Assembly (NCBI GenBank): GCA_965227835.1
Contig: OZ245768.1
Coordinates: forward strand, 750,001-782,000
Direction: 5' to 3'
From: Candidatus Saccharimonadota bacterium
Lineage (GTDB): Bacteria; Patescibacteriota; Gracilibacteria; BD1-5; UBA6164
DNA length: 32,000 bases
The notes below the pieces were generated by a model, which did not search any database, was not told the DNA's origin, and was given only the letters and a program-made list of their open reading frames with translations. This document shows, in pieces, positions 2-30,642 of this stretch; the first letter of the stretch is position 1, and the number at the start of each line of letters is the position of its first letter. The position numbers and the translations under genes were made by a program.

Positions 2-1516
2 AAGAAGTTTAACAATTTAAAAACTATTATTTTATCAGGACAAGATTTGGATTCTATAATGAGTGATATTTATTTCAAAGAACTTTTGGCTGTTGCTTGA
101 AAAGAACTTATAGAAAAAAACAGAAGGCTAGTTTTTGATTTATATATAGAAAAAAAGAAGCTAGAGCAAGAAACTAGTTCTTTAAAAAAACTAAAAAGGA
201 ATTTTAATGTTAAGAAAAAGATATTGAATGATAAGAAATTGTTTAAAGAAAAAATACTTAAAGTTTCTAAATGACAAGATAGTCTTTATAAGAAATATAT
301 AAAACAAAAGCTAGATACAGAAAAAAACTTGAAGCTTAAAGCTTTTTCTGAGAGAGTAAAATTTTATGCTACATCAAAAAAAGTTCTTAGTAATTCATGA
401 TGTGAGTTTTTGGATGTTTCTAAAAATACACCTGAAGTAAGGACTTTATCTTCTAAGTGTTATGAGTTGAATAAAATTATATTTTTAGAAGCAGAACTTG
501 AAAAAAATAAAAATAAATGAGAAGAAAAAGATAGGTATAATTTTTTTTCATGGCCTGTACCTCCCTACTCGGGTATATCTGCTTATTTTAGGGATAATGA
601 ATATAAAAAGAGATTTGGAACAGATCATGATGCTGTTGATATTATAGCCAGTCAAGGTACTCCAATAGTTGCACCTGCTGATGGTTATGTTATATCATTG
701 AGTGAGCCTTTAGATGATTCTTATGCTTATATAGCTTTGAAACATATAGACTGAAAAGTTAGTGTTTACTGACATGTTAGTGAGATATTAGTTGAGAAAT
801 ATGATTATATAAAATCTTGAGAGATATTTGCTAAAACTTGATGAACTTTTTGAACTTCTTGAGCTTGATATATAACTACAGGTCCTCATCTTCATTTTGA
901 AATTTTGGAAGATAAAGTTGCTGTTGATCCACTTAAAAGTTTGGATTTAAGTTATCTTGATTTTAAGAATTTGCCAGAATATTATAGACTTGATTTTCTT
1001 ATGGATTACAGAGAAAGGACTTGAAAAGATTATAGAGTGAAAGATGAACCTTGAAAAAGAGTTTTTAGGCTTGATTGAAATACAGAAATAGAAAGGCAGA
1101 AATCTTTGCTAAATAAATATGCTAGGAGTGATTTTAGGAACTGGGATATGTGGGTTGAGGAGTCTTTGAGGTGGAACATAGATCCTAGTTTTATGATGTG
1201 TGTATGACTTGCCGAAAGTAGTCTTGGTGTTAATTTAAAAACTCCTTATAATGTTTGAAATGTTTGAAATGTTGATTCTTGAGGTACTTGGACTATGACT
1301 TCTCCTAGGCATTGAATTTGGTGGATGGGCCATACTTTGAATAATAAATATTTAGGTAGTTACAATGAAATATCAAAGCTTAGTTGATATGGTAGAAAAG
1401 GTAATGATCCTATTTATGCTTCAGATCCTGTAAATTGGCATAGAAATGTTATAAAATGTATGTCTACTATCAAGGGACAATATATATGAGATGATCACAA
1501 TTTTAGAACTTATTAG
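2..1516 (+). CDS. Secreted peptidoglycan hydrolase: coiled-coil N-region, M23 (LytM) metallopeptidase domain, C-terminal glucosaminidase/lysozyme-like domain; 5' end lies outside the window
   Basis: The frame is open across the whole span only if TGA is sense. M23 motifs are present: DHDAVDI, GTPIVAPADGYV, Y-G(TGA)-HVS, and TG..TTGPHLHFE. TGA falls at conserved Gly positions (e.g. 752-754, 770-772). The C-terminal part reads ...GLAESSLGVN.... Stop is TAG at 1514-1516. Confidence 0.85.
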
Positions 1517-1534
1517 TTTTTATGAAATTAGAAA

Positions 1535-1557
1535 AGAGGCAACCTACGGCTGCCTCT
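1535..1557. terminator. Bidirectional GC hairpin terminator (copy 1 of a conserved hairpin)
   Basis: AGAGGCAACC-TAC-GGCTGCCTCT, flanked by an A-run and a T-run. It lies between the convergent M23 gene and membrane-protein paralog 1. Confidence 0.6.
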
Positions 1558-1563
1558 TTGAAA

Positions 1564-2237
1564 TCACTCCTTATTTGATTGTCCTTCATACAAGTTAAGT
1601 CCTATCATTGCTACCAAAGCAAGAAAAAGTTGAGGCAAAATAACATATGGAATACCATATGGAACTAAAAATATAATATGTATGGGAATTACATATAATA
1701 GTATCAGTTCAGGCTTACTATCAACAAATACTTGCTTAAATCCATCAAGTTTATATGTAAATAACGTTGTTACTATTAAGGAAATTAAAGCAATTAAAAA
1801 GATATAATATAGAAAATCAGTTAAACCAAAGATAATACCAAAGAAAAAACCAAAAAATAAAGATGAAAAGATATTAAAAAAAGAGAGATAAATATAATTC
1901 CAACTGTTTGAAAAATTCTGTGACTACCACTTTCATAAAAATCCCCTTTTTCGCTCTTTTTTCGATATTTTCCTAGGTATTCTATATATTTGTATCTATA
2001 CAATATAATTGCCTCAAATAATGTTGATATTGCAATCATAATATTAATAGTAAACAACATATCCTTGCTTCCTTGAAAGTATTCTTCAATTTCTTGTGAA
2101 TATACTATCCAAGCTGACATAATTATCAGTAACGACGGTGCTAGTTTTTGATAAAAACGATAATTAAAAAATACATTTTTACCAAAGAAATGACACAACT
2201 TTAAGGGCATGTCATATAAGCTTTGTTTAATATTCAT
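1564..2237 (-). pseudogene. Polytopic membrane protein, paralog 1 of the 3471-4160 gene, split by a frameshift near 1821-1830
   Basis: The 138-aa ORF 1821-2237 (MNIKQSLYDM...) aligns to the N-half of the 229-aa paralog. The C-half (…ELILLYVIPIH…NLYEGQSNKE) continues in another frame over 1564-1827 and ends at TGA 1564-1566. AAGGAGG lies 7 nt upstream of the ATG, and TTGACT-16-TATAAT lies further upstream. Confidence 0.6.
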
Positions 2238-2416
2238 TTTTTCCTCCTTTTAAAACAATTGAAAAGAATAAAAACAAAAATATTATAATAAATTTTATTT
2301 AAAAGTCAATAAAAAATGGTAGAGTCTATCACGAAATGTAACCTTTAGAAGATATGATATACTCTAAAAGATATAATTAAATTTTTGTGATATGAAATAC
2401 TGAATTTTATTAAAAA

Positions 2417-2439
2417 ACAGGCAGCCTACGGCTGCCTGT
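2417..2439. terminator. Conserved GC hairpin terminator (copy 2)
   Basis: ACAGGCAGCC-TAC-GGCTGCCTGT, flanked by A and T runs, directly after the TGA at 2446-2448 of the decayed paralog. Confidence 0.6.
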
Positions 2440-2445
2440 TTGAAA

Positions 2446-3068
2446 TCACTCCTTATTTTGTCCTTCATACAAGTTAAATCCTATCATTACTACCAAAGCA
2501 AGAAAAAGTTGAGGAAGAAAAGCATAGAAAGTACCATATGGAGCTAAGGGTATAAATGGAAATAAGGATATAATATGTATACATATAATAGTATCAGTTC
2601 AACCTTGTTATAAATCAATTTACTCTTATACACCATGTTTGATGTACATAATTTAGTAATCATTTACGAAACTTAATATAAATCCATCTAAATATGAGTC
2701 AAAAATATGATAATGTGATATTATAAGGAATAACATAGAAAGAGTTAATATGATTGAAACAAGGAAATTATGAAAAATGGAAATAATAATAATAATAAGT
2801 GATTATAAAATACCAAGTGGAATAACACCAATTAAGAATCCAAAACCACCAAAATAAGAGAAATAAATATGAAATGTTTCAAATTTATAAGCTCCACTAT
2901 CATAATAAATAGTTTACCAGGTATTCTATATAGTTGTATCTATACAGTATACCTGCCTGAACTAATGTTAGTATTGCAATAATGGTAATGTTAAAGAATT
3001 TAAATCTCCAACCTGAAAGTGAATATACTATCCAAGCTGTCATAATTATCAGTACCGGTGCAGTTTTT
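2446..3068 (-). pseudogene. Decayed, 5'-truncated paralog 2 of the membrane-protein gene
   Basis: Nucleotide and protein similarity to paralog 1 (…APVLIIMTAWIVYS…ILYRYNYIEYL… and the C-terminal …NLYEGQNKE-TGA). It lacks the MNIKQ start region and carries in-frame TAG/TAA stops and deletions. Confidence 0.55.
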
Positions 3069-3441
3069 TGTATTTTATATTTTATTTTTTACCTTTATAT
3101 AAGTAAAAATCAGTAGATTTTATATTGATTGAATTTTATAAAGATAAAGTTAGCTTAAATAAGTCATTTATAGAAATACCTACAATACATATGTACATGA
3201 TCTTCTTCCATTCATATCTTTATTATTATTAAAGATAAAACATTAAAAATAGCTTAATATGTCCTACTTTATTTCAAAGTAAAATATAGGTCATACAATT
3301 TTTCACTTATAAAAAGTGGGTTTTTATAGTTTTGAGAAAATGGATAGAATCTATAACGAAATGCAACTTTTAGAAGACATGATATACTCTAAAAGATATA
3401 ATTAAATTTTTGTGATATGAAAATATGAATTTTATTAAAAA

Positions 3442-3464
3442 ATAGGCAGCCTACGGCTGCCTAT
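3442..3464. terminator. Conserved GC hairpin terminator (copy 3)
   Basis: ATAGGCAGCC-TAC-GGCTGCCTAT, flanked by A and T runs, immediately after the TGA at 3471-3473. Confidence 0.6.
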
Positions 3465-3470
3465 TTGATG

Positions 3471-4160
3471 TCACTCCTTGTTTATATTTATTTGTTTATT
3501 ATTCCTATATAACTTAATACCTATAACTATTATCAGAAAAGTAAAAGCATATAAAAATATATAAGGAACAAAAGTTTGGATAAAGCCATATGTCGCTATT
3601 AATAAAAGTTTTACAGGAATTATATATAGTAGCAATAATTCCATTTTGTTATTTAAATCAATCCCAAGATCAAAAATCGGATCTTTCATTGTAATTAAAA
3701 TTAACTTCACAATTACCAAAGATAATGTAATACCAATTATCAGTGCTCCAATATAAGAACCACGGGTAAGAAAAAAAGCCATAAAACCTAAAACGACACC
3801 CCAAGAAACAGAACAAAGTATGATTGAACTTATACCTAGAAGTTTTAAGTATTTATTTTCAAAGGATTCTTCACCTTCTTTTATATAGTCTCCTAGATAC
3901 TTTATATAATTAAATCGGTACAATATCGCTATTTCAATCAATGTAAGTGTAATAATAATTGTATTAATTACTAAACTAACAATTTCATTTTGAAAACCTT
4001 GCCCAATTTCCTGCATAATCAACACATAAACTAACATAATCAATTGTAAGGATGGCACCAACTTTCCATAAAAATTATAGCTAAAAACTATATTTTTACT
4101 AGAAGAATGACATAACTCTGGAGTTATATCATAATCATATAAGTTTTGTTTAATATTCAT
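3471..4160 (-). CDS. Polytopic membrane protein, 229 aa, unknown function. It is intact in the standard code, contains no in-frame TGA, and terminates at TGA; under table 25 it would extend to TAA at 3435.
   Basis: The ORF is in the supplied track and has about 6 hydrophobic segments. AAGGAGGT lies 7 nt upstream of the ATG, with a TATAAT-containing promoter region at 4161-4233. All 14 Gly codons are GGN. Confidence 0.75.
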   Translation of the reverse strand: MNIKQNLYDYDITPELCHSSSKNIVFSYNFYGKLVPSLQLIMLVYVLIMQEIGQGFQNEIVSLVINTIIITLTLIEIAILYRFNYIKYLGDYIKEGEESFENKYLKLLGISSIILCSVSWGVVLGFMAFFLTRGSYIGALIIGITLSLVIVKLILITMKDPIFDLGIDLNNKMELLLLYIIPVKLLLIATYGFIQTFVPYIFLYAFTFLIIVIGIKLYRNNKQININKE

Positions 4161-4233
4161 TTTTACCTCCTTTTAAAATAATTGAAAAGAATAAAAACAT
4201 ATTTATTATAATAAGTTTTACTCGTAACGCAAC

Positions 4234-6798: not shown

Positions 6799-8004
6799 GG
6801 GACCTCTGCAATATTGTTGAAAAGAACAAGAAAAAAGTGATTTTGAATAAAAATCACTTTTTTTGAAGAATATATAAGATAATTTCTATGAATTATGCCT
6901 TTTTTTAGGTATAATTTCCAAATTTAGGCACAATTCACCTATTAGAAAGCTATATATACCTCCTTGCCAATAGTTCAAAATTATAAATAGCACAAGATAA
7001 AAACCAGTGCATAGCATTCTTAACTAATCATCTATATCTTGTTTTATAATTTCAATATTTAGCCTTTAAAATAGAAAAAGGATGTTCTACTCTTGCCCTA
7101 ATAGTAGATTTAATTCTATTTTGTTCTTTTTGATAAGAAGTCAACGGATTATTTCTAGATCATCTTTCATTGAACTCTCACTTAATTCATAACTCATCTA
7201 AAAATTTTATTTTATCTTTACTTATATAGGCACTATCTCAATATGCCTCTTCACTCTCATCTCAAGTCATTAAAGTATCAGATAATTGTGAATCATGTAT
7301 CTTAGCTGTCGTATATGTTGTATTCATTACAAAGTCTCCTCTCTTTGTTGTTTCAATATGAGCTTTATATCAATGATAACTTCTTCAATTCTTCTTTGTA
7401 AAACTAGCTTCCTTATCTCTTGTATTTTCTCATTTATTATTCTTTCTTCATTTTGGTGATTCTATTATAGTACCATCTTGAATAAATCACTTTTCTACTG
7501 TAAATCACATTTCAGCTAAAATAAATTGAGTCATTGTAAATATAGTTTCCTGACTTCAGTTTTCTGATAATTCATTTCTAAATCTACATATTGTTGTTTC
7601 ATCTGGTATATCTTTAGACTCCGATATTCATAGAAACTTTTGAAAGCTATTTCTGTCTCTTATTTGATCTTCTATTTCCGGATCTGATAATCCATATAAT
7701 CATTGAAGAAATAGTATTTTTAACATTTTTTGTATTTCCATTCTTGGTCTTCAAACTCATCAATCTGATATTTCTCTAGATAAATTAATTTTATTTGATA
7801 TTGATTCCCATGGGACTACTTTATCTAATTTTGTTAGAAACTTTTCTGTTCTTGTAATTCATAACTCATTTTGGAAATAATTCAAAAATGTTTGTTGTTC
7901 TTTAAATGGTGACATAATCATTAAAAAAAAATTAAAATATTTATCATATTTTAATCTTTTTATTATATTTTTGTAATTTAAATCTATCTTTTTGCAGAGG
8001 TCCC
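6799..8004 (-). mobile_element. IS5-family insertion sequence (about 1.2 kb)
   Basis: 13-bp perfect terminal inverted repeats GGGACCTCTGCAA (6799-6811) and TTGCAGAGGTCCC (7992-8004). Flanking 4-bp direct repeat TTAT (6795-6798 and 8005-8008). A single DDE transposase ORF lies inside. Confidence 0.8.
6950..7915 (-). CDS. IS5-family DDE transposase (321 aa)
   Basis: The table-25 translation shows an N-terminal InsH-like region (…GRPRMEIQKMLKILFLQGLYGLSDPEIEDQIRDRNSFQKFLG…) and a DDE_Tnp_1 C-terminus (…YGDSAYISKD…RARVEHPFSILKAKYG…RYRGL.KN). It contains many TGA-Gly codons. Confidence 0.85.
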
Positions 8005-8085
8005 TTATGTTATTAGAATAAAACAAACAAATCAAAGAAAACTATAAAAAATAGGTTAATACCAAAAATGTGTTCTATTTTTTTA

Positions 8086-11686: not shown

Positions 11687-12890
11687 GAGCCTGTTGTAAA
11701 TTAAACTTTGACTATTAAAAAGAGAAAAAAGAGATATAATTAGATAGTAATTATATTCTAAGAAAATACCTATGTGAGAATCAAATCAAATAAGTTTTGT
11801 TATCCTAAACGAGCTAATTCCAGAAAATCATCAATATCGTAAATTTAAGAAATTGTGGAACTTTGATTGAGTAAATAAAATACTAAAAAATATAGATCTA
11901 TGAAAAACTCATGTATGATATTGAGTAAAAAAATTATTTCTATGTTTACTAATCCAGTTTATGGAAGATCTATCAGATAGAGAGTTAGAGAAATATCTTG
12001 CAGAAAATTTAGCTGGTAAATGGTTTTGCTGATTTAAATTAACAGATAAAACTCCAGATCATAGTATATTCACAAGAGCAAGAAAAAAGATATGAACAAA
12101 TGAACTATCAAAGATATTTGAAGATTTAAAAAATCAATTATCAAATAAGGGTTATATGAGTGAAGTGTTTACATTTGTAGATGCTTCTCATTTAGTTACT
12201 AAAGCTAATTTATGGGAAGAAAGAGATAAATGAATAAAAGAATGATATGAAAAAATGAATAATGAAACTCTTCCAAAAGTTGCTAATGATAAGGAAGCTA
12301 AAATTTGATCTAAGTGAAAAAATAAATTTTGGTATGGTTATAAAAAACATGCTAGTGTTGATATGCAATCTTGAATGATAAACAAGATAGCTATAACTCA
12401 AGCTAATGTAACAGATGCAAAGTGAATGAAGCATGTATTACCAAGTTCATGAGCAGTATATGCTGATAAGTGATATTGTATTTGACCGGCTGTAATATCA
12501 ACAAAAAAGAAGTGATTACATCTATGTGCAATAAAGAAAAATAATATGAAAGATAAGAACAAGGATAAAGATAAGTTTTATTCTAAACTTAGATCTCCTT
12601 ATGAGAGAGTATTTTCAAAAATGAATCATAGAGTGAGGTATAAGTCTGTAGTAAAAAATCAGTTTACTGCATTTATGGAAGCTATATCTTTTAATCTCAA
12701 AAGATTAGTTGTTTTAGAGGAAGTCCCAATAGTTTAGATTAGTTTCCTTAGGTGGATTGCGTCTAAAATCCTAAATTATATATAAAAATGGCTATAATTT
12801 AACAAAAAATAGATGAATTTTATAAATCTTTCATCTATTTAGTACTTTTCTTAATTAAAACTCTTTTTAAAGTCAAAACGCAACAGACCC
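11687..12890 (+). mobile_element. IS5/IS1182-like insertion sequence (about 1.2 kb)
   Basis: Imperfect inverted repeats: GAGCCTGTTG…TTTGACT.TTAAAAAGAG (11687-11724) against the reverse complement of CTCTTTTTAAAGTCAAAACGCAACAGACCC (12861-12890). Flanked by direct AAACT at 11682-11686 and 12891-12895. Confidence 0.7.
11772..12737 (+). CDS. IS5-family DDE transposase (321 aa)
   Basis: The table-25 translation reads …FMEDLSDRELEKYLAENLAGKWFCGF…DASHL…YADKGY…RSPYERVFSKMN..VRYKS..KN. It is in frame with supplied ORF 12546-12737. TAG stop. Confidence 0.85.
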
Positions 12891-18580: not shown

Positions 18581-18753
18581 AAAGATATAGAAGAAAAATT
18601 TGAGATTAAAAAGTAAGAATTATGATTGCTTAAATTTTGTAAATATGCCGATAAAGCCATAGAACATTGAACCATGACGGAAGAAGATAAACAAAAACTT
18701 ATTGAAAAATTCTATGAAAGAAATCAAAAGAAAGTTTCATAAAAACATAAAAA

Positions 18754-18788
18754 ACAATTGCTAGAAATGAAACTAGCAATTGTTTTTT
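18754..18788. terminator. Bidirectional intrinsic terminator between convergent genes
   Basis: ACAATTGCTAG-(8 nt)-CTAGCAATTGT, with an A-run upstream and a T-run downstream. Confidence 0.65.
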
Positions 18789-18799
18789 AATTAAGTTTT

Positions 18800-19218: not shown

Positions 19219-20049
19219 CTAACTAAAAAATTTACTATCTTCTATTTCTCATAAAATTACTCTGCAGGTATACTTTATATCTTCTGTAAAATCAGATTTT
19301 AAAATCCATTTCAAATAACTCTTATCTATATTTAGTATCTCTTCAAAAGTTTTTCATCTATATTTTCATATCTTAATAGTCTTCATACAAATAAATTGTT
19401 TTTTCGTCATTTCAATCATCTTATCAAGAATTTCATCATCACTCAAATTGAGTAATTCTTTTATGATAAAAAACATTTTATAAAAAATCTGTTCTAAAAC
19501 AACTACATCTCAAAAAGCATCGTGAGCATTAACTTTTTGGAGTTCTCATTTTTCATCAAGTATTTCATATATTTCAAAAAAATATCTCAAATATTGCAAA
19601 GTAAAATATTCTGGTTCTTCTCATGACTCTGATTTTAAAACTCATTCACTATGCATTATCTTTGATATCTTAAGAGTATCTATCATAATAGAAGAAAAAG
19701 AAATTCAGGATTTTTCTAAAACATCAGTATCAAATTTGATATTGTGAGCTATAATAATGCTATCTGAAAAATCTTTGCTAAATTTATTTTTAATATCATT
19801 ATCTAAATATTTTCAACCAGATTTTTCAAAGAGCAATTTTTTATATATACCATGAACAGCCATAGAAAAAACTTGTATTCTAGTATCTGTATTAAAAAAA
19901 TAATTTTCATCTATTTTTTTATCTTTTTGATATTTTCTATAAGCAAGCTGAATCAAATCTCAATTTGAGATTACTTTACCTTTTTGATCTTTTAAAATAC
20001 CAGTAGTTTCTGTATCAAAAAACAATATATCTTTGGAATTTTTTAGCAT
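19219..20049 (-). CDS. DEDDh 3'-5' exonuclease (DnaQ/epsilon-like) with a C-terminal KYRGKTFEEI…YLKWIL domain
   Basis: Exo motifs FFDTETTG, AHNIKFD and HDAFGD are present. 276 aa under table 25. TAG stop at 19219-19221. Confidence 0.8.
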
Positions 20050-20151
20050 TTTTAAAATATATAAAAAATTATTTTTCTGCAGAAAGTTAATTTTTCAGCC
20101 TCTAATTAATTTAATAATAGTAACATTATATTAATTACACTAATTTTTACA

Positions 20152-20627
20152 AAAACAAAAAAGCTGGATTATTCCAGCTTTAATATCTTACTGCCACTTC
20201 CCTTCTCTCTTGCTGAACTTTGATTGATTTACTTCAAGTATTGTAACACCAGCAATCTTACAATACTTATAAACGAAGTTCTTTATCAATTTTATTCCAG
20301 ACTATACTGAAACAACTATTCCTCTAACGACGCTAATTGAGGAAAAAATCGCTAGTTGCATCACTTAAAACTCAGTACATAACTGAACTTTAAGGATAGT
20401 TTCTAAAACTATGCACAAAAGAGTAAGGGACAGTCGGATGATAGGGTTTATAACTTTAACCCCTTAAGTATGTATTTCTCAAAGAATAAATGCTTTAATT
20501 AATTGATTAAAAAAGGGAACGGAGATCCCTAGTTAATCTAAAAACAATTATTCAGGAACAAACATCATCCATTTAAATTCATGTAGTAAGAAGAACCTTT
20601 TTGATGTGTCAGTATCTCTAACACACT
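20152..20627 (-). ncRNA. Unclassified structured ncRNA, paralog A (about 470 nt including the terminator)
   Basis: A consensus promoter lies upstream. The body is visibly GC-richer than its flanks and has no plausible ORF on either strand. A long-range helix pairs 20416-20431 with 20193-20212. It ends in hairpin AAGCTGGA-TTAT-TCCAGCTT (20161-20180) plus a T-run on the minus strand. Confidence 0.55.
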
Positions 20628-20803
20628 GGGTATTATATTAAAAATATATTATGAGTCAAATAAAAAATAGTCAATTAATCTTGGTTGCCTATTTAAAAGG
20701 AAAAATAAGACCTTTTTAATAGCTAAAATTATAATGAAAAATACTTCTTTATCCAATTTATTGATGAAAAATGTATAAAGTTTTTGTACAAAAAACATAA
20801 AAA
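20606..20803. repeat. 198-bp direct repeat, copy 1 (promoter block plus the first ~22 nt of the transcript)
   Basis: By eye it is identical base for base to 21258-21455. Confidence 0.9.
20632..20659 (-). promoter_or_regulatory. Sigma70-type promoter of ncRNA A
   Basis: On the minus strand: TTGACT (20659-20654), a 16-nt spacer, then TATAAT (20637-20632). The predicted start is around 20625-20627. Confidence 0.6.
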
Positions 20804-20808
20804 TAATA

Positions 20809-20860
20809 CAAAAATAGATTAATATAATTTCAAAAATAGATTAATATAATTTCAAAAATT
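20809..20860. repeat. Tandem duplication of a 22-bp unit
   Basis: CAAAAATAGATTAATATAATTT occurs twice, followed by a partial third unit (CAAAAATT). Confidence 0.8.
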
Positions 20861-20917
20861 AATAAAATAAATAATTTTTAAATGATATAAGCTATTTTAG
20901 TTTGTTATTTAAATTCT

Positions 20918-21279
20918 TACAAAAAAAACTGTGATTTTATCACAGTTTTATATTTTAACACTCCTTATCTCTCTTAACCAAACTTTAGGAAAGCTTCAGA
21001 TAATATTGAGATGCAACACATTACCGAGTGAAGCATATCATACCGTCATTAGCAGTCCTTATTCCCGTATTTTTGTACGTGGGTGGGAGCAATCAGATCT
21101 CCTATGTGGAGGTCATGCTAATTGCATTCGGAGAAGAGAGAGTAGAGTGCCCAGGCCGTACATTACCTGGAACTTACTTTATGATTTACCAAACGGACCT
21201 AAAAAAACTTAAAGTTTGGTAAACCAAAGGACATCATCATGACACCCGATTTGAAAAGTGTCAGTATCTCTAACACACT
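20918..21279 (-). ncRNA. Unclassified structured ncRNA, paralog B (about 360 nt including the terminator)
   Basis: It has the same promoter and 5' leader as A and is the most GC-rich stretch of this locus. A closing helix pairs 21130-21151 with 20958-20975, and nested helices include ATTAGCA/TGCTAAT. It ends in hairpin AACTGTGAT-TTT-ATCACAGTT (20927-20947) plus a T-run on the minus strand. Confidence 0.55.
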
Positions 21280-21455
21280 GGGTATTATATTAAAAATATA
21301 TTATGAGTCAAATAAAAAATAGTCAATTAATCTTGGTTGCCTATTTAAAAGGAAAAATAAGACCTTTTTAATAGCTAAAATTATAATGAAAAATACTTCT
21401 TTATCCAATTTATTGATGAAAAATGTATAAAGTTTTTGTACAAAAAACATAAAAA
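21258..21455. repeat. 198-bp direct repeat, copy 2
   Basis: Identical to 20606-20803. Confidence 0.9.
21284..21311 (-). promoter_or_regulatory. Sigma70-type promoter of ncRNA B
   Basis: An identical copy of TTGACT-16 nt-TATAAT, offset by 652 bp from the promoter of A. Confidence 0.6.
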
Positions 21456-21579
21456 AACCTGTTTATAAAAAATTTGATTTTTACTTCATCATATATAATA
21501 TCTTGAAGGGTTGATTTTAGTTACTTGAAAAAGAACTAAGAAAATTATAATATAAAATTTAAAAAGTTAATATAAAAAT

Positions 21580-21813
21580 ATGGCAATCTTAACAGATGAA
21601 CAAAGAGAAAAATTAAGAAAAGCTTGAATAAAAGCTCCTCATGTAAATGAAACTTGCATAGGTTGCTCTGCTTGTGTAGCTATTGCTGGAGAAGCTTTTG
21701 ATCTTAATGATGAAGGAAAATCAGAAGTAATAGAATGTAATAGTTATAATGAAGAAGATATAGACAATGCTATTGCCGCATGTCCTGTTGATGCTATATC
21801 ATGGAAAGAATAA
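21580..21813 (+). CDS. Small [4Fe-4S] ferredoxin
   Basis: 77 aa with CIGCSACV … CPVDAI cluster motifs. One TGA-Gly codon. TAA stop. Confidence 0.85.
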
Positions 21814-21899
21814 ATCAAAGAAAGATAAAAACAACTATATTTTTGTGTATAAAAGTTTAGTATGATATAATTTACACAAATTAAAGCTAAATATAAAAT

Positions 21900-22424
21900 A
21901 TGCAATATATTATAATATCTATAATAGTAGTTTTTATAATCTTCATATGGAGACTTTTTGTCATAAGAAAAGGTATAAATAAATTGGAATTAAATATAAG
22001 AAGGACATTTAATTCCAGAACAAATATGATACCTGCTATATTTGAAAGTACAAAAAATATATTTTCCAAGCATGAAGAAATATTTGAAGAGGTATTGAGA
22101 CAAAGAAAAAAAGAACTTTATAAATTTTATATACAAAAAAATATAGATAACCTAGATAATGATTTTGTGGAACTATTACATATAGAAAAACTTATACACC
22201 ATGAGCTAAATTTTATATTCAAAGTTTCAGAAAGACATCAAAAACTCAGTAAAAAATGAAACTTTATATATTTAAAAAACCTAATAGTAGAGAAAAGTTA
22301 TGATATAGCAGGTTTAATGGAGGAATATAAAAGTAAAATAGGTTTATACAATAAATTAATAGATATAAAAAATGCAACTATAATATGAATGATTATCCCT
22401 TTGGATAGAAAAATAGTAATATAA
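21900..22424 (+). CDS. LemA-like membrane-anchored protein
   Basis: Supplied ORF 21900-22259 continues through a TGA to TAA at 22422-22424 (174 aa). It has an N-terminal TM helix followed by …NSRTNMIPAIFESTK…, a LemA-like pattern. The family call is tentative. Confidence 0.55.
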
Positions 22425-22450
22425 GAGCTTCCTATATAGGAAGCTCTTTT
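22424..22450 (+). terminator. Intrinsic terminator after the LemA-like gene
   Basis: AGAGCTTCCT-ATAT-AGGAAGCTCT followed by TTT. Confidence 0.65.
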
Positions 22451-22454
22451 GAAT

Positions 22455-22600
22455 TTTATTTCTTGTCAACAGAAGGCTTTAGCCTTTTGGCTTTTAGTAG
22501 ACAGAGTTTAGTTCTTTGGTTTTTACTTTTCGTCAACAGAAGGCTTTAGCCTTTTGAATTTTATTTCTCGTAAACAGAGAGCTAAAGCTCTTTTATCTTG
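22455..22600. repeat. Tandem array of four roughly 38-nt REP-like hairpin units (GGCTTTAGCC family)
   Basis: Units are centred on CAACAGAAGGCTTTAGCCTTTTG (22467-22490 and 22534-22557), a degenerate GACAGAGTTTAGTTCTTTGG (22500-22519), and AAACAGAGAGCTAAAGCTCTTTT (22572-22595). No unique spacers separate them. Confidence 0.75.
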
Positions 22601-22727
22601 TAAGAAATTTCTCTTTTTAAAAAAGCTCCCAGTTCTACACAAAGGATGCTTTTAGTTTTGATTGATATTAAAAATAGGTTGAAAAATTACTTTCTAATGC
22701 TAAAAATAAAGATTTTTTAGGTAATTT

Positions 22728-24447: not shown

Positions 24448-24531
24448 GAATATTAAGTTTGATCATAAATTATAATGTAATAATTTGAAGAATATGCTTA
24501 ACTCTACTTGCTAATATCTTTAGTTATCTTT

Positions 24532-24553
24532 AACAGAGGGCTTTAGCCTTTTG
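24532..24553. repeat. REP-like hairpin repeat
   Basis: AACAGAGGGCTTTAGCCTTTTG. Confidence 0.65.
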
Positions 24554-24678
24554 AACTTTAACAAAATTCTTTGACTCTTTATTATTATATAATACTAGAA
24601 TAAGAAATAAGAAGACTTTATTCCTTTAATTTTGTAAAATATCAATAAAAAACTTAAATTTTTAGTAAAAATCAAAAA

Positions 24679-26750: not shown

Positions 26751-26793
26751 AATTTTTTATAAGGTATAATTTAAGGAGAGAGTTAAGGTGAAG

Positions 26794-26890
26794 TCTGTTC
26801 TACTCTCTTCTCCTCCAAAGGAGAGAGGTTGGGGGGTGAGGGCTGTACGGAGAGGATTAGGGTGAGGTTTTTCTTGGGTTAGGGTGAGGA
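26794..26890. repeat. GC-rich palindromic element copy 1 with a G-tract tail
   Basis: TCTGTTCTACTCTCTTCTCCTCCAAAGGAGAGAGGTTGGGGGGTGAGGG followed by …GGGTGAGG…GGGTTAGGGTGAGG. Confidence 0.8.
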
Positions 26891-26911
26891 CTAATCAAAA
26901 ATTATCAATGG

Positions 26912-26935
26912 GCAAATGGCTAAAGCCATCTGTTG
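26912..26935. repeat. REP-like hairpin repeat
   Basis: GCAAATGGCTAAAGCCATCTGTTG, lying between the two GC-rich elements. Confidence 0.6.
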
Positions 26936-27014
26936 AAGGTATATACTAAATTTAGGGTAAATTGTAATAAAATCTATTTTACTCCCTTATAATAGTAATT
27001 TCTATTCTATTCCT

Positions 27015-27085
27015 TCTGTTCTACTCCCCTCTCCTCCAAAGGAGAGGGGCTGGGGGTGAGGTCCGATTGGGTTGGGGATAAGGTC
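27015..27085. repeat. GC-rich palindromic element copy 2 with a G-tract tail
   Basis: TCTGTTCTACTCCCCTCTCCTCCAAAGGAGAGGGGCTGGGGGTGAGGTC followed by CGATTGGGTTGGGGATAAGG. The hairpin is CCCCTCTCC-TCCAAA-GGAGAGGGG. Confidence 0.8.
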
Positions 27086-27117
27086 TATTCATTTCTTAAA
27101 AAATTTTTCATCAAATT

Positions 27118-28521
27118 CTAATCTTCCAAGCTTCCTTTAACTTCACTAAGAAAATTCAAAGCCTCCAAAGGAGTAAGACTATTTATATCTGTTTTTTTCA
27201 ATTTTTCTTCTACTTGTGATACTTTTTTTACTTCTAAATTATCATCTTTTAGGCCTCTATTTTCATTTTTAGGGTTTAAAAACAAATCCATGGAAAGTTG
27301 GGAGTTGGAGAAACTATTTTTTTCCAAAATTTTAAGCATTTTTTTAGCTTCATCTATTATTGATGAGTTAATTCAAGCTAGTTTAGCAACTTCAAGACCA
27401 AAAGATTTCTTTATTCCTCATGGTATTATTTTCCTCAAAAATACCAATTCTCAATTGTTTTCTCAAACAGATACAGAGAAATTTTTAACTCCGTGAAGAC
27501 TTTTTGATTCATCTATAAGTTCATGATAATGAGTAGCAAAAAGAGTTTTAGCTTTTATTTTATCATGATTTTCTTTTAATATACCCCAAGCTAGACTCAT
27601 TCCATCAAATGTGGAAGTACCTCTACCTACTTCATCTATTATCACAAAAGAATTAGAGCTTGAATTGTTTATTATATTAGCTACCTCCTGCATTTCAAGC
27701 ATAAATGTGGATTGACCAAAATATAGATTATCACTAGCTCAAATCCTAGAAAAGATTCTGTCTGTTATAGGTATAGTTCAGCTAGAAGCAGGAATGTAAC
27801 TACCTAAATGTGCCATAAGTATGATAAGAGCATTTTGTCTTAAAAAGGTAGATTTTCATCACATATTTGGTCAAGTGATTATATTGACGAAATTATCTTT
27901 TGTTAATTCTAGATCGTTTGATACAAAATCCTTTTCCGTTTGTTCAACTACAGGATGTCTAGCATTTTTTATATCTAGTTTGTAGTCTTTGGTAATTTTT
28001 GGTTTATTGTAGTCAGAAAAATATGCTAGGTTTGAAAGAGAAACTTCAAAATCTATAAAAGATGTTTTTTTTGATAGATTTTTTATTTCGCTATAACCTT
28101 CAAGGATTTCAGCTCTAATTTCTTGAAATAGTTCGTATTCTCTGGAGTTAAGATATGATGAAGCTTCTAAAAATTTCTTTTCAAAGTTTATTAGATCTTG
28201 GGTAACATATCTGGAAGCATTAACAAGTGTTTGTTTTTGTATAAAGTCTTCAGGTGCTTTTGAAACAAAAGATTTTGGGATTTCAATAAAATACCCAGAA
28301 ATATTTGTGTATTTTATTTTTAGGTTTTTTATACCTGTTTTTTCAATAAGTGTATTTTGATAGTTTGCCAGCCAGTTTTTAGAATTATCTAAAATATCTC
28401 TGTATTCATCTACTCTGCTATCAAATCAGTCTTTTATAATATTTCATCAAGTCAAAAGTAAATCTGGTTCATCTTTTATAGATTTCTCTATTAAATCAAT
28501 TATGTCTTGTATTTTTTGCAA
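27118..28521 (-). CDS. mutS: DNA mismatch repair protein MutS, C-terminal part only (clamp/lever, ATPase and C-terminal dimerisation regions); the N-terminal mismatch-binding and connector domains are absent
   Basis: 467 aa from a TTG start, with TAA three codons upstream. Motifs: RHPVVE, the ITGPNMGGKSTF Walker A (three TGA-Gly codons, plus-strand 27848-27880), [21 protein letters not shown], and C-terminal …[10 protein letters not shown]…. It joins supplied ORFs 27118-27339 and 27463-27702. Confidence 0.85.
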
Positions 28522-29496: not shown

Positions 29497-29889
29497 ATGT
29501 ATTACTTTTTGTTTTTCTTTTTAGTTTTAATGGTATTTTCGATATTTTTAATTTTAAAGTTTTCCAGAAAAAAAAGGCTAAAAAAAGAAAGTAAGTTAAA
29601 ACTAGAAAGTCATTTTTATGAAATAAAAAAACTTAGTTCAAGTAAAGAAAGAATTACAGATTTTGATAAACTTTATCATAAAATACTTAGAGAGCTTAGA
29701 TATAGTTGAACTTTTTGAGAAATACTTAAAAGTAAACCAAAAATAATTGATGATATAGAGGAATTATGGGAATTGCATAAACTTAGAAATAAGTTGGTGC
29801 ATGATTTTTCTTCTATTTCAGAGAAAACTTTGGAAGAAAAAGCTTTGAGGTATGAAAAATTGGTATATGATTTTTTGGATAAGCTTTAG
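29497..29889 (+). CDS. Hypothetical small membrane-anchored protein (130 aa)
   Basis: Supplied ORF 29497-29709 continues through a TGA to TAG at 29887-29889. It has an N-terminal TM helix followed by a helical domain. Confidence 0.6.
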
Positions 29890-29906
29890 TATTTATATTT
29901 TATAGA

Positions 29907-30642
29907 ATGTATATTTGATCTGAAAGAAAAAAATTGAGATTAAAAGATTATAATTATTCAAGTAATTGATATTATTTTGTCACGATATGTACGAAAGATA
30001 GAATGAATTATTTTGGTGAGATAATTGATTGAAGGATGATTTTAAACGAATATGGGAAGATTGCTGAAAAAGAGATTTTAAAAACACCATATATAAGAGA
30101 AGAAATAAAAATTGATGAATTTATTATAATGCCAAATCATTTACATTTGATTGTTGTGATTGAAAATGGGGTAAATTTTGGGAATGTGGGGAATGACGGA
30201 AATATATCCAATGTGGGGAATGTTTCAAACATGGGGAATGCGGGAAATGTATCCACCGTGAAAAATGTATCCACCATGCCAACCGTAGAACACAGGCCTG
30301 CGTTCCCTACGGTTGGGACGTTCATCACGGTTGGGACGTTCACCACGGTTGGAACGTTCACCACAATCATCACAATCCCCCAATTCAATACAAAAAAATT
30401 ACCAACAACAAAACCATTACACAAAAAACAAATTATCAAACACAATACAAAGAATAAAATCACAAATAACATTAAACATAAGAAAACAATTAAATGATTT
30501 TACATTTAAATGGCAAAAATCATTCTTTGATAAAATTATACGAACAAAAGATCAATTAAATAAAACAAGAAAATACATTATAAACAATCCTTTAAAATGG
30601 GAATTTGATGAGAATAACCACAAAAAAAGACCCTCTAATTAG
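29907..30642 (+). pseudogene. IS200/RAYT-like HUH (Y1) transposase gene interrupted by a GC-rich tandem-repeat insertion and a +1 frame change
   Basis: The N-part in frame 0 reads MYIGSERKKLRLKDYNYSSNGYYFVTICTKDR…IMPNHLHLIV (HUH motif). The C-part in frame +1 (30289-30642) reads …LSNTIQRIKSQ…FKWQKSFFDKIIR…RKYIINNPLKW (catalytic Tyr region). The two cannot be joined without a frameshift somewhere in 30289-30430. Confidence 0.75.
30177..30362. repeat. Intragenic GC-rich tandem repeats
   Basis: Degenerate GGGGAATGT-type units span about 30177-30280. Three 18-bp units ACGGTTGG(G/A)ACGTTCA(T/C)C span 30309-30362. Confidence 0.8.

Follow-up and report, generated by a model that had tools for sequence, protein, structure and literature searches.

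Two tandem candidate genes for structured RNAs between a ferredoxin and an exonuclease gene of a UGA-recoded Gracilibacteria genome

A 32-kb stretch of Gracilibacteria DNA (contig OZ245768.1; the whole stretch is called the window here) contains two units, RNA A and RNA B, which are likely to be real genes for structured non-coding RNAs (ncRNAs). The two units lie head to tail on the minus strand within the 1.53-kb gap between a ferredoxin gene and an ExoX-like exonuclease gene. Beyond this, and only tentatively, since we hold slightly more doubt than confidence, we read them as co-regulated sibling small RNA (sRNA) genes of an orphan, lineage-specific family, a reading that includes a trans-acting regulatory function. 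A and B are not demonstrably a new RNA class; they are a lineage-specific curiosity known from a single locus. The argument below is built on sequence signals, composition, fold stability, the lack of a coding signal, the lack of a known family and the absence of the segment from the syntenic site of relatives.

Transcription signals, composition and fold

According to the original prediction, the two minus-strand units start at identical promoters and end in a hairpin followed by a T-run, and this arrangement was confirmed at the sites listed in Table 1. The best-scoring promoter-like sites share their strand with significant terminators and are separated from them by 355 and 473 nt of intergenic DNA. 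Terminator-like sites number six within 19800-21900, against 0.3 expected. The bodies of both units also proved GC-richer than their surroundings, as had been claimed; in a window with a GC content of 24.7%, B has 38.3% and A 31.9%, compared with 14-18% in the spacers, which places B at the 99th and A at the 96th percentile among windows of the same length.

Table 1. Features of the RNA locus (positions in the window; nt numbers count from the predicted 5' end of each RNA; P, pair probability)
Feature	Position	Strand	Remarks
RNA B	20925..21279	-	predicted 355-nt transcript, from presumed start 21279 to terminator end
RNA A	20155..20627	-	predicted 473-nt transcript, from presumed start 20627 to terminator T-run
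RNA B promoter	21311-21284	-	promoter-like site, TTGACT-16-TATAAT (11/12)
RNA A promoter	20659-20632	-	promoter-like site, TTGACT-16-TATAAT (11/12), identical to that of B
RNA B terminator	20925..20949	-	11-bp stem and U-run; terminator-like in the plus-strand direction as well
RNA A terminator	20160..20181	-	9-bp stem and U-run
198-nt perfect direct repeat, copy 1	21258..21455	-	palindrome TTTTTGTACAAAAA at 21433-21446, promoter 21311-21284, first 22 nt of B
198-nt perfect direct repeat, copy 2	20606..20803	-	palindrome at 20781-20794, promoter 20659-20632, first 22 nt of A
22-bp tandem repeat	20787..20870		AAATTATATTAATCTATTTTTG (minus strand), ~3.4-3.9 copies, two perfect; in the spacer between B terminator and A promoter module
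5' hairpin of B	21258..21276	-	nt 4-22, GUGUUAG/CUGACAC; P 0.67
5' hairpin of A	20604..20626	-	nt 2-24, 9 bp; P 0.98
B pyrimidine-rich 5' strand	21126..21150	-	nt 130-154; pairs with nt 297-322, 21 bp in three segments, P 0.90-0.99
B purine-rich 3' strand	20958..20983	-	nt 297-322, GUUUGG..AAGAGAGA..GGAGUGU; in shared 3' motif
A pyrimidine-rich 5' strand	20415..20434	-	nt 194-213; 18-bp helix with nt 415-432, P 0.93
A purine-rich 3' strand	20196..20213	-	nt 415-432, GCAAGAGAGAAGGGAAGU; in shared 3' motif
Segment absent from the ferredoxin-exonuclease spacer of relatives	20118..21463		~1.35 kb, approximate extent
Ferredoxin gene	21580-21813	+	divergent from exonuclease gene
ExoX-like 3'-5' exonuclease gene	19219-20049	-	other flank of RNA pair

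Folding revealed a pronounced stability of both predicted transcripts. The minimum free energy (MFE) of RNA B is -114.1 kcal/mol and that of RNA A -130.9 kcal/mol, corresponding to z scores of -7.38 and -5.70 against dinucleotide shuffles, while the background across the 32 kb is -0.70 +/- 1.31 (53 windows of 355 nt). The sole other outlier (z -5.07) is a perfect 17-bp bidirectional terminator at 18748-18789 between convergent genes; a possible 22-codon open reading frame (ORF), MTEEDKQKLIEKFYERNQKKVS, lies just upstream of that terminator. GC richness alone is not the source of the fold signal, because a different GC-rich island (26770-27110) has a z score of only -0.34. In addition, the minus-strand folds of A and B exceed those of the plus strand in stability by 16 kcal/mol, and each contains 16 G-U pairs versus 4 and 7 on the plus strand. 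This strand asymmetry speaks for a minus-strand RNA rather than for a feature of the plus strand or of the DNA itself.

These values bear on the simplest alternative, namely that the segment is non-functional, either a pseudogene in decay or GC-rich inserted DNA that lies between promoter-like and terminator-like signals by chance. Such an origin would agree with an orphan for which conservation evidence is lacking and with the chance frequency of promoter-like sites in the window. However, the fold z scores lie 4-5 standard deviations beyond the genomic background, and do so twice; terminators are strongly enriched, no protein similarity emerged in any frame tested, and a perfect 198-nt promoter module, described below, has been retained on both units. 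We therefore regard a non-functional segment as quite improbable.

Shared ends and the closing helix

Both units are preceded by a perfect direct repeat of 198 nt that comprises the promoter and 176 nt upstream, including the perfect palindrome TTTTTGTACAAAAA, together with the first 22 nt of the transcript. The common 5' 22 nt had been put forward as a shared feature of the two RNAs; they are indeed identical, but they do not form an isolated handle and are merely the end of the repeat. The perfect identity of non-transcribed, AT-rich DNA beside bodies that cannot be aligned points to a recent gene conversion or duplication of the promoter module. Identical promoter modules, in turn, imply a common regulation of A and B. 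The 22-bp tandem repeat of Table 1 is located directly upstream of the promoter module of A only, and could be an iteron-like or operator array.

Outside the repeat, similarity is confined to the 3' ~70-95 nt, which read …AAAGUU…AAGAGAGA…ARGG…AGUG… and continue into the terminator. The motifs GAUGAUGU and AAAGUU...AAGAGAGA, previously described as shared, were found in both RNAs. Aligned globally, the last 95 nt scored 41, compared with -2.7 +/- 8.3 for shuffles (z 5.3), and with this score the A/B pair ranks 4th of 120 among the terminator-bearing segments of the window. When only the 70 nt before the terminator stem were considered, the pair ranked 2nd of 120 (z ~2.2), behind known repeat copies. 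The bodies of A and B were not alignable by MAFFT. A modest homology of the two bodies is plausible on these comparisons. Given that the similarity is modest, restricted to the 3' end and drawn from two sequences, the duplicated family with a covarying closing helix that had been proposed is not established.

Partition-function folding, from which all helix probabilities given here derive, predicts a plan common to A and B that consists of a 5' hairpin, several further hairpins, a closed multi-hairpin core and the terminator. The core is closed by a helix between a pyrimidine-rich and a purine-rich strand (Py/Pu helix), which is part of the MFE structure of both RNAs with a mean pair probability of 0.90-0.99, and the terminator follows immediately 3' of it. 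The positions originally assigned to this helix fall inside the computed strands of A and B. Within RNA B, the pyrimidine-rich strand is the best partner for the purine-rich strand anywhere in the molecule. The hairpins of A that lie outside the core form a domain closed by GGAUGAU/AUCAUCC, and a long-range 5'-3' pairing connects nt 37-43 of A with nt 436-442.

To what extent the closing helix covaries was assessed from duplex energies. The cognate Py/Pu duplexes reach -24.2 kcal/mol in A and -20.8 kcal/mol in B. Of the crossed duplexes, the one between the pyrimidine strand of A and the purine strand of B is weaker (-14.1 kcal/mol), in line with the covariation that had been claimed, but the one between the pyrimidine strand of B and the purine strand of A is equally good (-20.5 kcal/mol), and the comparison involves two sequences only. 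Most of the duplex energy is carried by the invariant AAGAGAGA/UCUCUCUU core. An alignment of the 3' parts with MAFFT and RNAalifold gave -3.75 kcal/mol; the alignment was poor and the shared motif was misaligned.

Smaller elements of the original prediction fared differently. Among the nested helices proposed for B, CUCC/GGAG and CGUA/UACG are present in the ensemble (P 0.76), while AUUAGCA/UGCUAAU has a probability of ~0 and would cost 11 kcal/mol to force. The speculative kink-turn between the 5' CUGA and a downstream UGAUGA is not supported by the fold, as CUGA (nt 17-20) is buried in the stem of the 5' hairpin (P 0.67-0.98). RNA A carries UGAUGU rather than UGAUGA, the spacing of the C and D boxes differs between A and B, and the scores of the snoRNA models (13-20 bits) stay far below their thresholds (41-95), so that neither RNA can be placed among C/D-box or kink-turn RNAs. 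The GGA triplet occurs six times in A and four times in B, about as often as expected by chance. GGAAUA was observed four times against 0.29 expected, with one copy located in a terminator stem.

Coding potential, known families and the origin of the insertion

The absence of a credible ORF from either unit, noted at the outset, was upheld by Pfam, by protein searches and by the comparison of A with B. Pfam gave no match for the four longest stop-to-stop ORFs of the region, and the 93-aa antisense ORF of B found only two chance matches to repeat proteins among 1.84 billion representatives. On the sense strand, A and B have no ORF in common, whether judged by sequence, by frame or by Shine-Dalgarno context. 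Moreover, three 1-nt indels separate A and B in their sole conserved body segment, which is incompatible with a conserved reading frame.

Very small peptides deserve separate consideration, because the units could be mRNAs comparable to type I toxin or leader-peptide loci. Such loci are often tandem and lineage-specific, and produce highly folded mRNAs with 5'-3' pairing, a pairing also predicted in A (nt 37-43/436-442). Candidate ORFs can be found: ORFs of 13-14 codons start near the 5' ends, at nt 41 in B and nt 46 in A, and both end in UUUUAG. A 33-codon ORF inside RNA B (MTVGYASLGNVLHLNIIGSFPKVWLREIRSVKI, 20951-21049, minus strand, two UGA codons) is preceded by AAGGA-N6-AUG and ends just 5' of the terminator; it has no counterpart in A. 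A hydrophobic ORF of 49 codons, MFFVQKLYTFFINKLDKEVFFIIILAIKKVLFFLLNRQPRLIDYFLFDS, has its ATG at the exact first base of the 198-nt repeat and stops inside the RNA promoter. Against this reading, no ORF is kept between A and B, the indels break the conserved segment, no antisense (plus-strand) promoter is found inside the units, and the 49-aa ORF, for which 5.8 billion proteins yielded no homologue, lacks a Shine-Dalgarno sequence, hence a ribosome-binding site, in repeat copy 2. The small-ORF leads of 13-14, 33 and 49 codons are not supported. With neither a shared ORF nor a plus-strand promoter inside them, the units do not show the hallmarks of type I toxin-antitoxin loci, and we have little confidence in the idea that they are peptide mRNAs.

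Comparison with known RNA families made use of the 4227 models of Rfam 15, which include RNase P, tmRNA, SRP, 6S, OLE, ROOL, GOLLD, HEARO, raiA, group I/II introns and riboswitches. At gathering thresholds no match was obtained in the whole window. At E<=10, the 1.8-kb locus and each unit alone returned only noise (9-21 bits against thresholds of 41-100), so that the covariance-model check suggested with the original prediction reclassifies neither A nor B. ARAGORN detected no tRNA and no tmRNA, standard or permuted, in the window. Both programs agree with the earlier statement that signature motifs of RNase P RNA, tmRNA and SRP RNA could not be seen; 6S RNA gave no match either, and a literature search returned no report of RNAs like A and B.

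One might still suspect a housekeeping RNA (RNase P RNA, tmRNA, SRP RNA or 6S RNA) that has diverged strongly, considering that B would suit RNase P RNA and tmRNA in size, and that GC-rich islands in AT-rich genomes usually are such RNAs. The isolated units, however, match no Rfam model even at E<=10, tmRNA is not found by ARAGORN, and the two copies are dissimilar. Synteny provides a further argument. The order ferredoxin-exonuclease-DUF302 is kept in three related loci (L001, L032 and L033), whose exonucleases are 61-65% identical and whose ferredoxin-exonuclease spacers measure 140-190 nt and contain no RNA gene. Conserved spacer sequence, AAATCAAATTTTTATA…TTAAATTAAATTGAAT, is recognisable on either side of the RNA pair. 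The short spacers of the relatives, together with this flanking sequence, identify the ~1.35-kb segment as a lineage-specific insertion, which is strong evidence against a housekeeping RNA. An RNA of that kind would be expected in related genomes, usually as a single copy, but nhmmer found no match to A or B in 31 related loci. This alternative is by far the least probable of those considered.

The window is readable as genes only with UGA as a sense codon: its ORFs of 100 aa or more add up to 3,406 aa with translation table 11 and to 11,346 aa with table 25 or 4. In the BD1-5 clade UGA encodes glycine, for which proteomics evidence has been presented (PMC4032931). The homologues of the flanking exonuclease bear the name Candidatus Gracilibacteria. 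Its best match is 96% identical, with a number of mismatches close to the number of UGA codons (10/276), and is almost certainly the exonuclease of the window itself read with UGA as tryptophan. The next relatives are only 65% identical.

Searches for relatives of A and B covered the 31 loci around exonuclease homologues as well as large sequence collections. With nhmmer, neither RNA matched anything in the 31 loci, and in 141 fetched loci (0.98 Mb) the only hits were the same chance motif matches as those of a pattern search. This search, with a degenerate 3'-motif pattern, gave two matches in viral collections, both coding and due to chance, and 105 stretches in metagenomes, none of which combined a comparable terminator with a low-GC context. 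Exact searches with the 5' 22-mer gave 0 hits each in IMG/VR, the GTDB genomes (one per species) and the JGI metagenomes, and blastn against INPHARED phages and PLSDB plasmids returned nothing relevant. A descriptor combining the purine strand, its upstream partner and a terminator recovered only the window itself among Gracilibacteria loci. The GC-rich, ORF-free islands of the related loci comprised a putative SAM riboswitch, tRNAs, small genes and REP-like hairpins, none of them comparable to A or B. Two sequences upstream of metK in related Gracilibacteria loci (L005, 5780-5890; L016, 5120-5230) look like SAM-I riboswitches by eye; their AAGAGAG-containing start resembles the 3' motif of A and B superficially and is unrelated. 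The original prediction had stated that a lack of homologues, or of significant covariation, in related genomes would speak against it, and the nhmmer search of related genomes did find none. The lack of homologues is largely explained by the lack of any close relative of the source genome in the collections searched.

Insertions of this kind invite the question of mobile DNA. The segment could be the remnant of a mobile or extrachromosomal element (replicon origin, phage or satellite) whose structure matters as DNA or single strand, or matters no longer. The 1.35-kb insertion relative to relatives, the 198-nt perfect direct repeat, the iteron-like 22-bp tandem repeats, and the IS5-like and Y1/RAYT-like transposase ORFs and REP-like hairpins of the window are consistent with this origin. 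In contrast, IMG/VR, the INPHARED phages and the PLSDB plasmids contain no match, no rep, integrase or transposase gene is adjacent, neither terminal inverted repeats nor a target duplication were seen, a DnaA-box cluster is missing, and the G-U-rich strand asymmetry favours RNA. A mobile remnant consequently appears rather unlikely. The related idea of a replication origin was dropped, as GC skew tracks the gene strand and no DnaA-box cluster is present.

The immediate neighbours of the RNA pair encode ferredoxin, LemA, the ExoX-like exonuclease and a DUF302 protein; the remaining products of the window are a peptidase and membrane, pilin, TPR, MutS-fragment, IS5-like and Y1/RAYT-like transposase proteins. 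No gene for a reverse transcriptase, TnpB/IscB, an IS110 recombinase or a Cas protein is found among the window ORFs, and no CRISPR-like array in the window. This agrees with the earlier remark that no reverse transcriptase, TnpB/IscB or recombinase gene is adjacent. The absence of a partner-protein gene nearby sets A and B apart from omega RNA, bridge RNA, retron msr-msd and tracrRNA.

Two different ORFs, 6953-8041 (-) and 11751-12734 (+), resemble IS5-family DDE transposases by eye; the region is rich in mobile DNA. By eye, too, ORF 29883-30506 resembles a Y1/REP-associated tyrosine transposase (…YYFVTICTKDR…HLHLIV…). The latter, scanned only as a partly frame-shifted 80-aa fragment, had no transposase match in Pfam. 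An 18-bp tandem repeat (30301-30364) interrupts or extends it and gives rise to GNV/TVGTF peptide repeats, and its product may partner REP-like hairpins. An intergenic island at 26767-27120, with a GC content of up to 47% and an overall fold z of -0.34, is probably REP-like. It holds five GGGTGAGG-like motifs and, at 26794-26835 and 27015-27056, a hairpin element of 42 nt in two copies that are 90% identical, with stems that differ by compensatory changes (CTCTTCTCC/GGAGAGAGG versus CCCCTCTCC/GGAGAGGGG). Kinship of these hairpins with A and B was considered and rejected, since the resemblance of the CTACTCTCTTCTCC arm to the pyrimidine strand of B is at noise level and the island is not globally structured. 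An element of ~49 nt with the hairpin CAGAAGGCTTTAGCCTTTTG, REP-like or terminator-like, occurs in four copies (22448-22601 and 24512-24560), three of them in tandem after the LemA gene. Finally, three paralogous genes for membrane proteins, diverged from one another, form an array at 1500-4200; repeated modules lie between them and include a conserved GC-rich terminator hairpin, AGGCAGCCTACGGCTGCCT.

Sibling small RNAs as the favoured reading

Sibling sRNA pairs are among the closest known arrangements. A generic pair of this kind would consist of paralogous, independently transcribed sRNA genes with shared end sequences; in A and B, separate promoter-like and terminator-like signals and shared ends are present. 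In Enterobacteria, the neighbouring paralogues OmrA and OmrB are sRNAs whose 5' and 3' ends are nearly identical and whose middle parts diverge. Like these, A and B are arranged head to tail, each with its own putative promoter and intrinsic terminator, and have an identical 5' end, a similar 3' end and a divergent centre; co-regulation is implied for them as well. Unlike OmrA/OmrB, which are ~85 nt long, Hfq-dependent and lightly structured, A and B measure 355-473 nt and are densely folded, and no sequence relation exists.

In size, the pair comes nearer to CsrB/CsrC, RsmX/Y/Z and CrcZ/CrcY, large paralogous sRNAs of 250-400 nt that sequester proteins. Many hairpins, equivalent promoters and an upstream palindrome are common to these and to A and B. 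In the sponges, however, a loop motif (GGA, or an A-rich CA motif) recurs many times, whereas in A and B GGA is only near chance and a single hexamer, GGAAUA, is mildly enriched. The tandemly repeated type I toxin-antitoxin loci of E. coli, LDR/ldr-rdl, zor-orz and ibs-sib, likewise occupy intergenic spacers as lineage-specific repeat units of ~500-650 bp with folded transcripts and 5'-3' pairing; they differ from A and B in having a conserved toxin ORF and an antisense RNA gene.

Another comparison is with OLE, raiA, ROOL, GOLLD and HEARO, which, like A and B, are long, GC-enriched, multi-helix and intergenic, and were found as GC-rich structured intergenic regions. A and B could be the first known representatives of a new ornate class, similar to these RNAs in size and complexity, and would then serve as a protein-bound scaffold or a catalyst instead of regulating by base pairing. 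Lengths of 355-473 nt with at least 10 helices each, very low fold z scores, a long closing helix around a multi-branch core and the excess of GGAAUA (4 versus 0.29 expected) would suit such a class. Yet the Rfam models of these RNAs do not match A or B, the known classes are conserved in many genomes with abundant covariation, whereas no second genome was found to carry A or B, the cores of A and B are unalignable, and the syntenic site of relatives is empty. A new ornate class is in our opinion unlikely.

In the sibling sRNA reading that we favour, transcription, action in trans and targets are inferred. According to this proposal, the RNA pair would have been acquired or created in this UGA-recoded Gracilibacteria lineage and would have entered the spacer that separates the divergent ferredoxin and ExoX-like genes. 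A and B would each be served by a sigma-70-type promoter and an intrinsic terminator of their own, and should be switched on and off jointly, possibly by a factor that binds the TTTTTGTACAAAAA palindrome. Each transcript would comprise a 5' hairpin, variable hairpins and a ~150-200-nt core closed by the Py/Pu helix just before the terminator. A and B might then be trans-acting, either as stable riboregulators or as RNAs that bind protein. The common ends could provide stability and shared handling, while the different cores would expose different loops and hence address different targets, as in other sibling sRNA pairs.

Several observations weigh against this proposal. Homologues of A and B were not found in the GTDB, metagenome, viral, phage and plasmid collections, nor in the 31 syntenic or related loci. 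The covariation seen in the closing helix is one-sided and only partly reciprocal. A length of 355-473 nt with dense structure is atypical for base-pairing sRNAs, and no gene for a target, chaperone or partner is identifiable in the window. Finally, promoter-like hexamers occur at chance density across the AT-rich window, so that the promoters were assigned only by top score, strand and position.

The boldest reading would see in A and B the first two members of a so far unseen class of large, modular RNAs in a Gracilibacteria lineage, in which a fixed 5' hairpin and the Py/Pu helix frame interchangeable cores of ~150-200 nt. The cores would then be exchangeable specificity modules for an unlinked protein, for example in host or prey interaction. 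We consider this reading unlikely.

Bacterial RNAs that exceed 300 nt and are densely folded are rare, and the characterised ones are biochemically unusual. To our knowledge, bacteria of the candidate phyla radiation such as Gracilibacteria, with their tiny genomes, have almost no characterised regulatory RNAs. If the sibling sRNA proposal is true, the co-regulated 355/473-nt pair would open a way to study how RNA regulates genes in these cells, which are uncultivated and probably live as episymbionts or predators.

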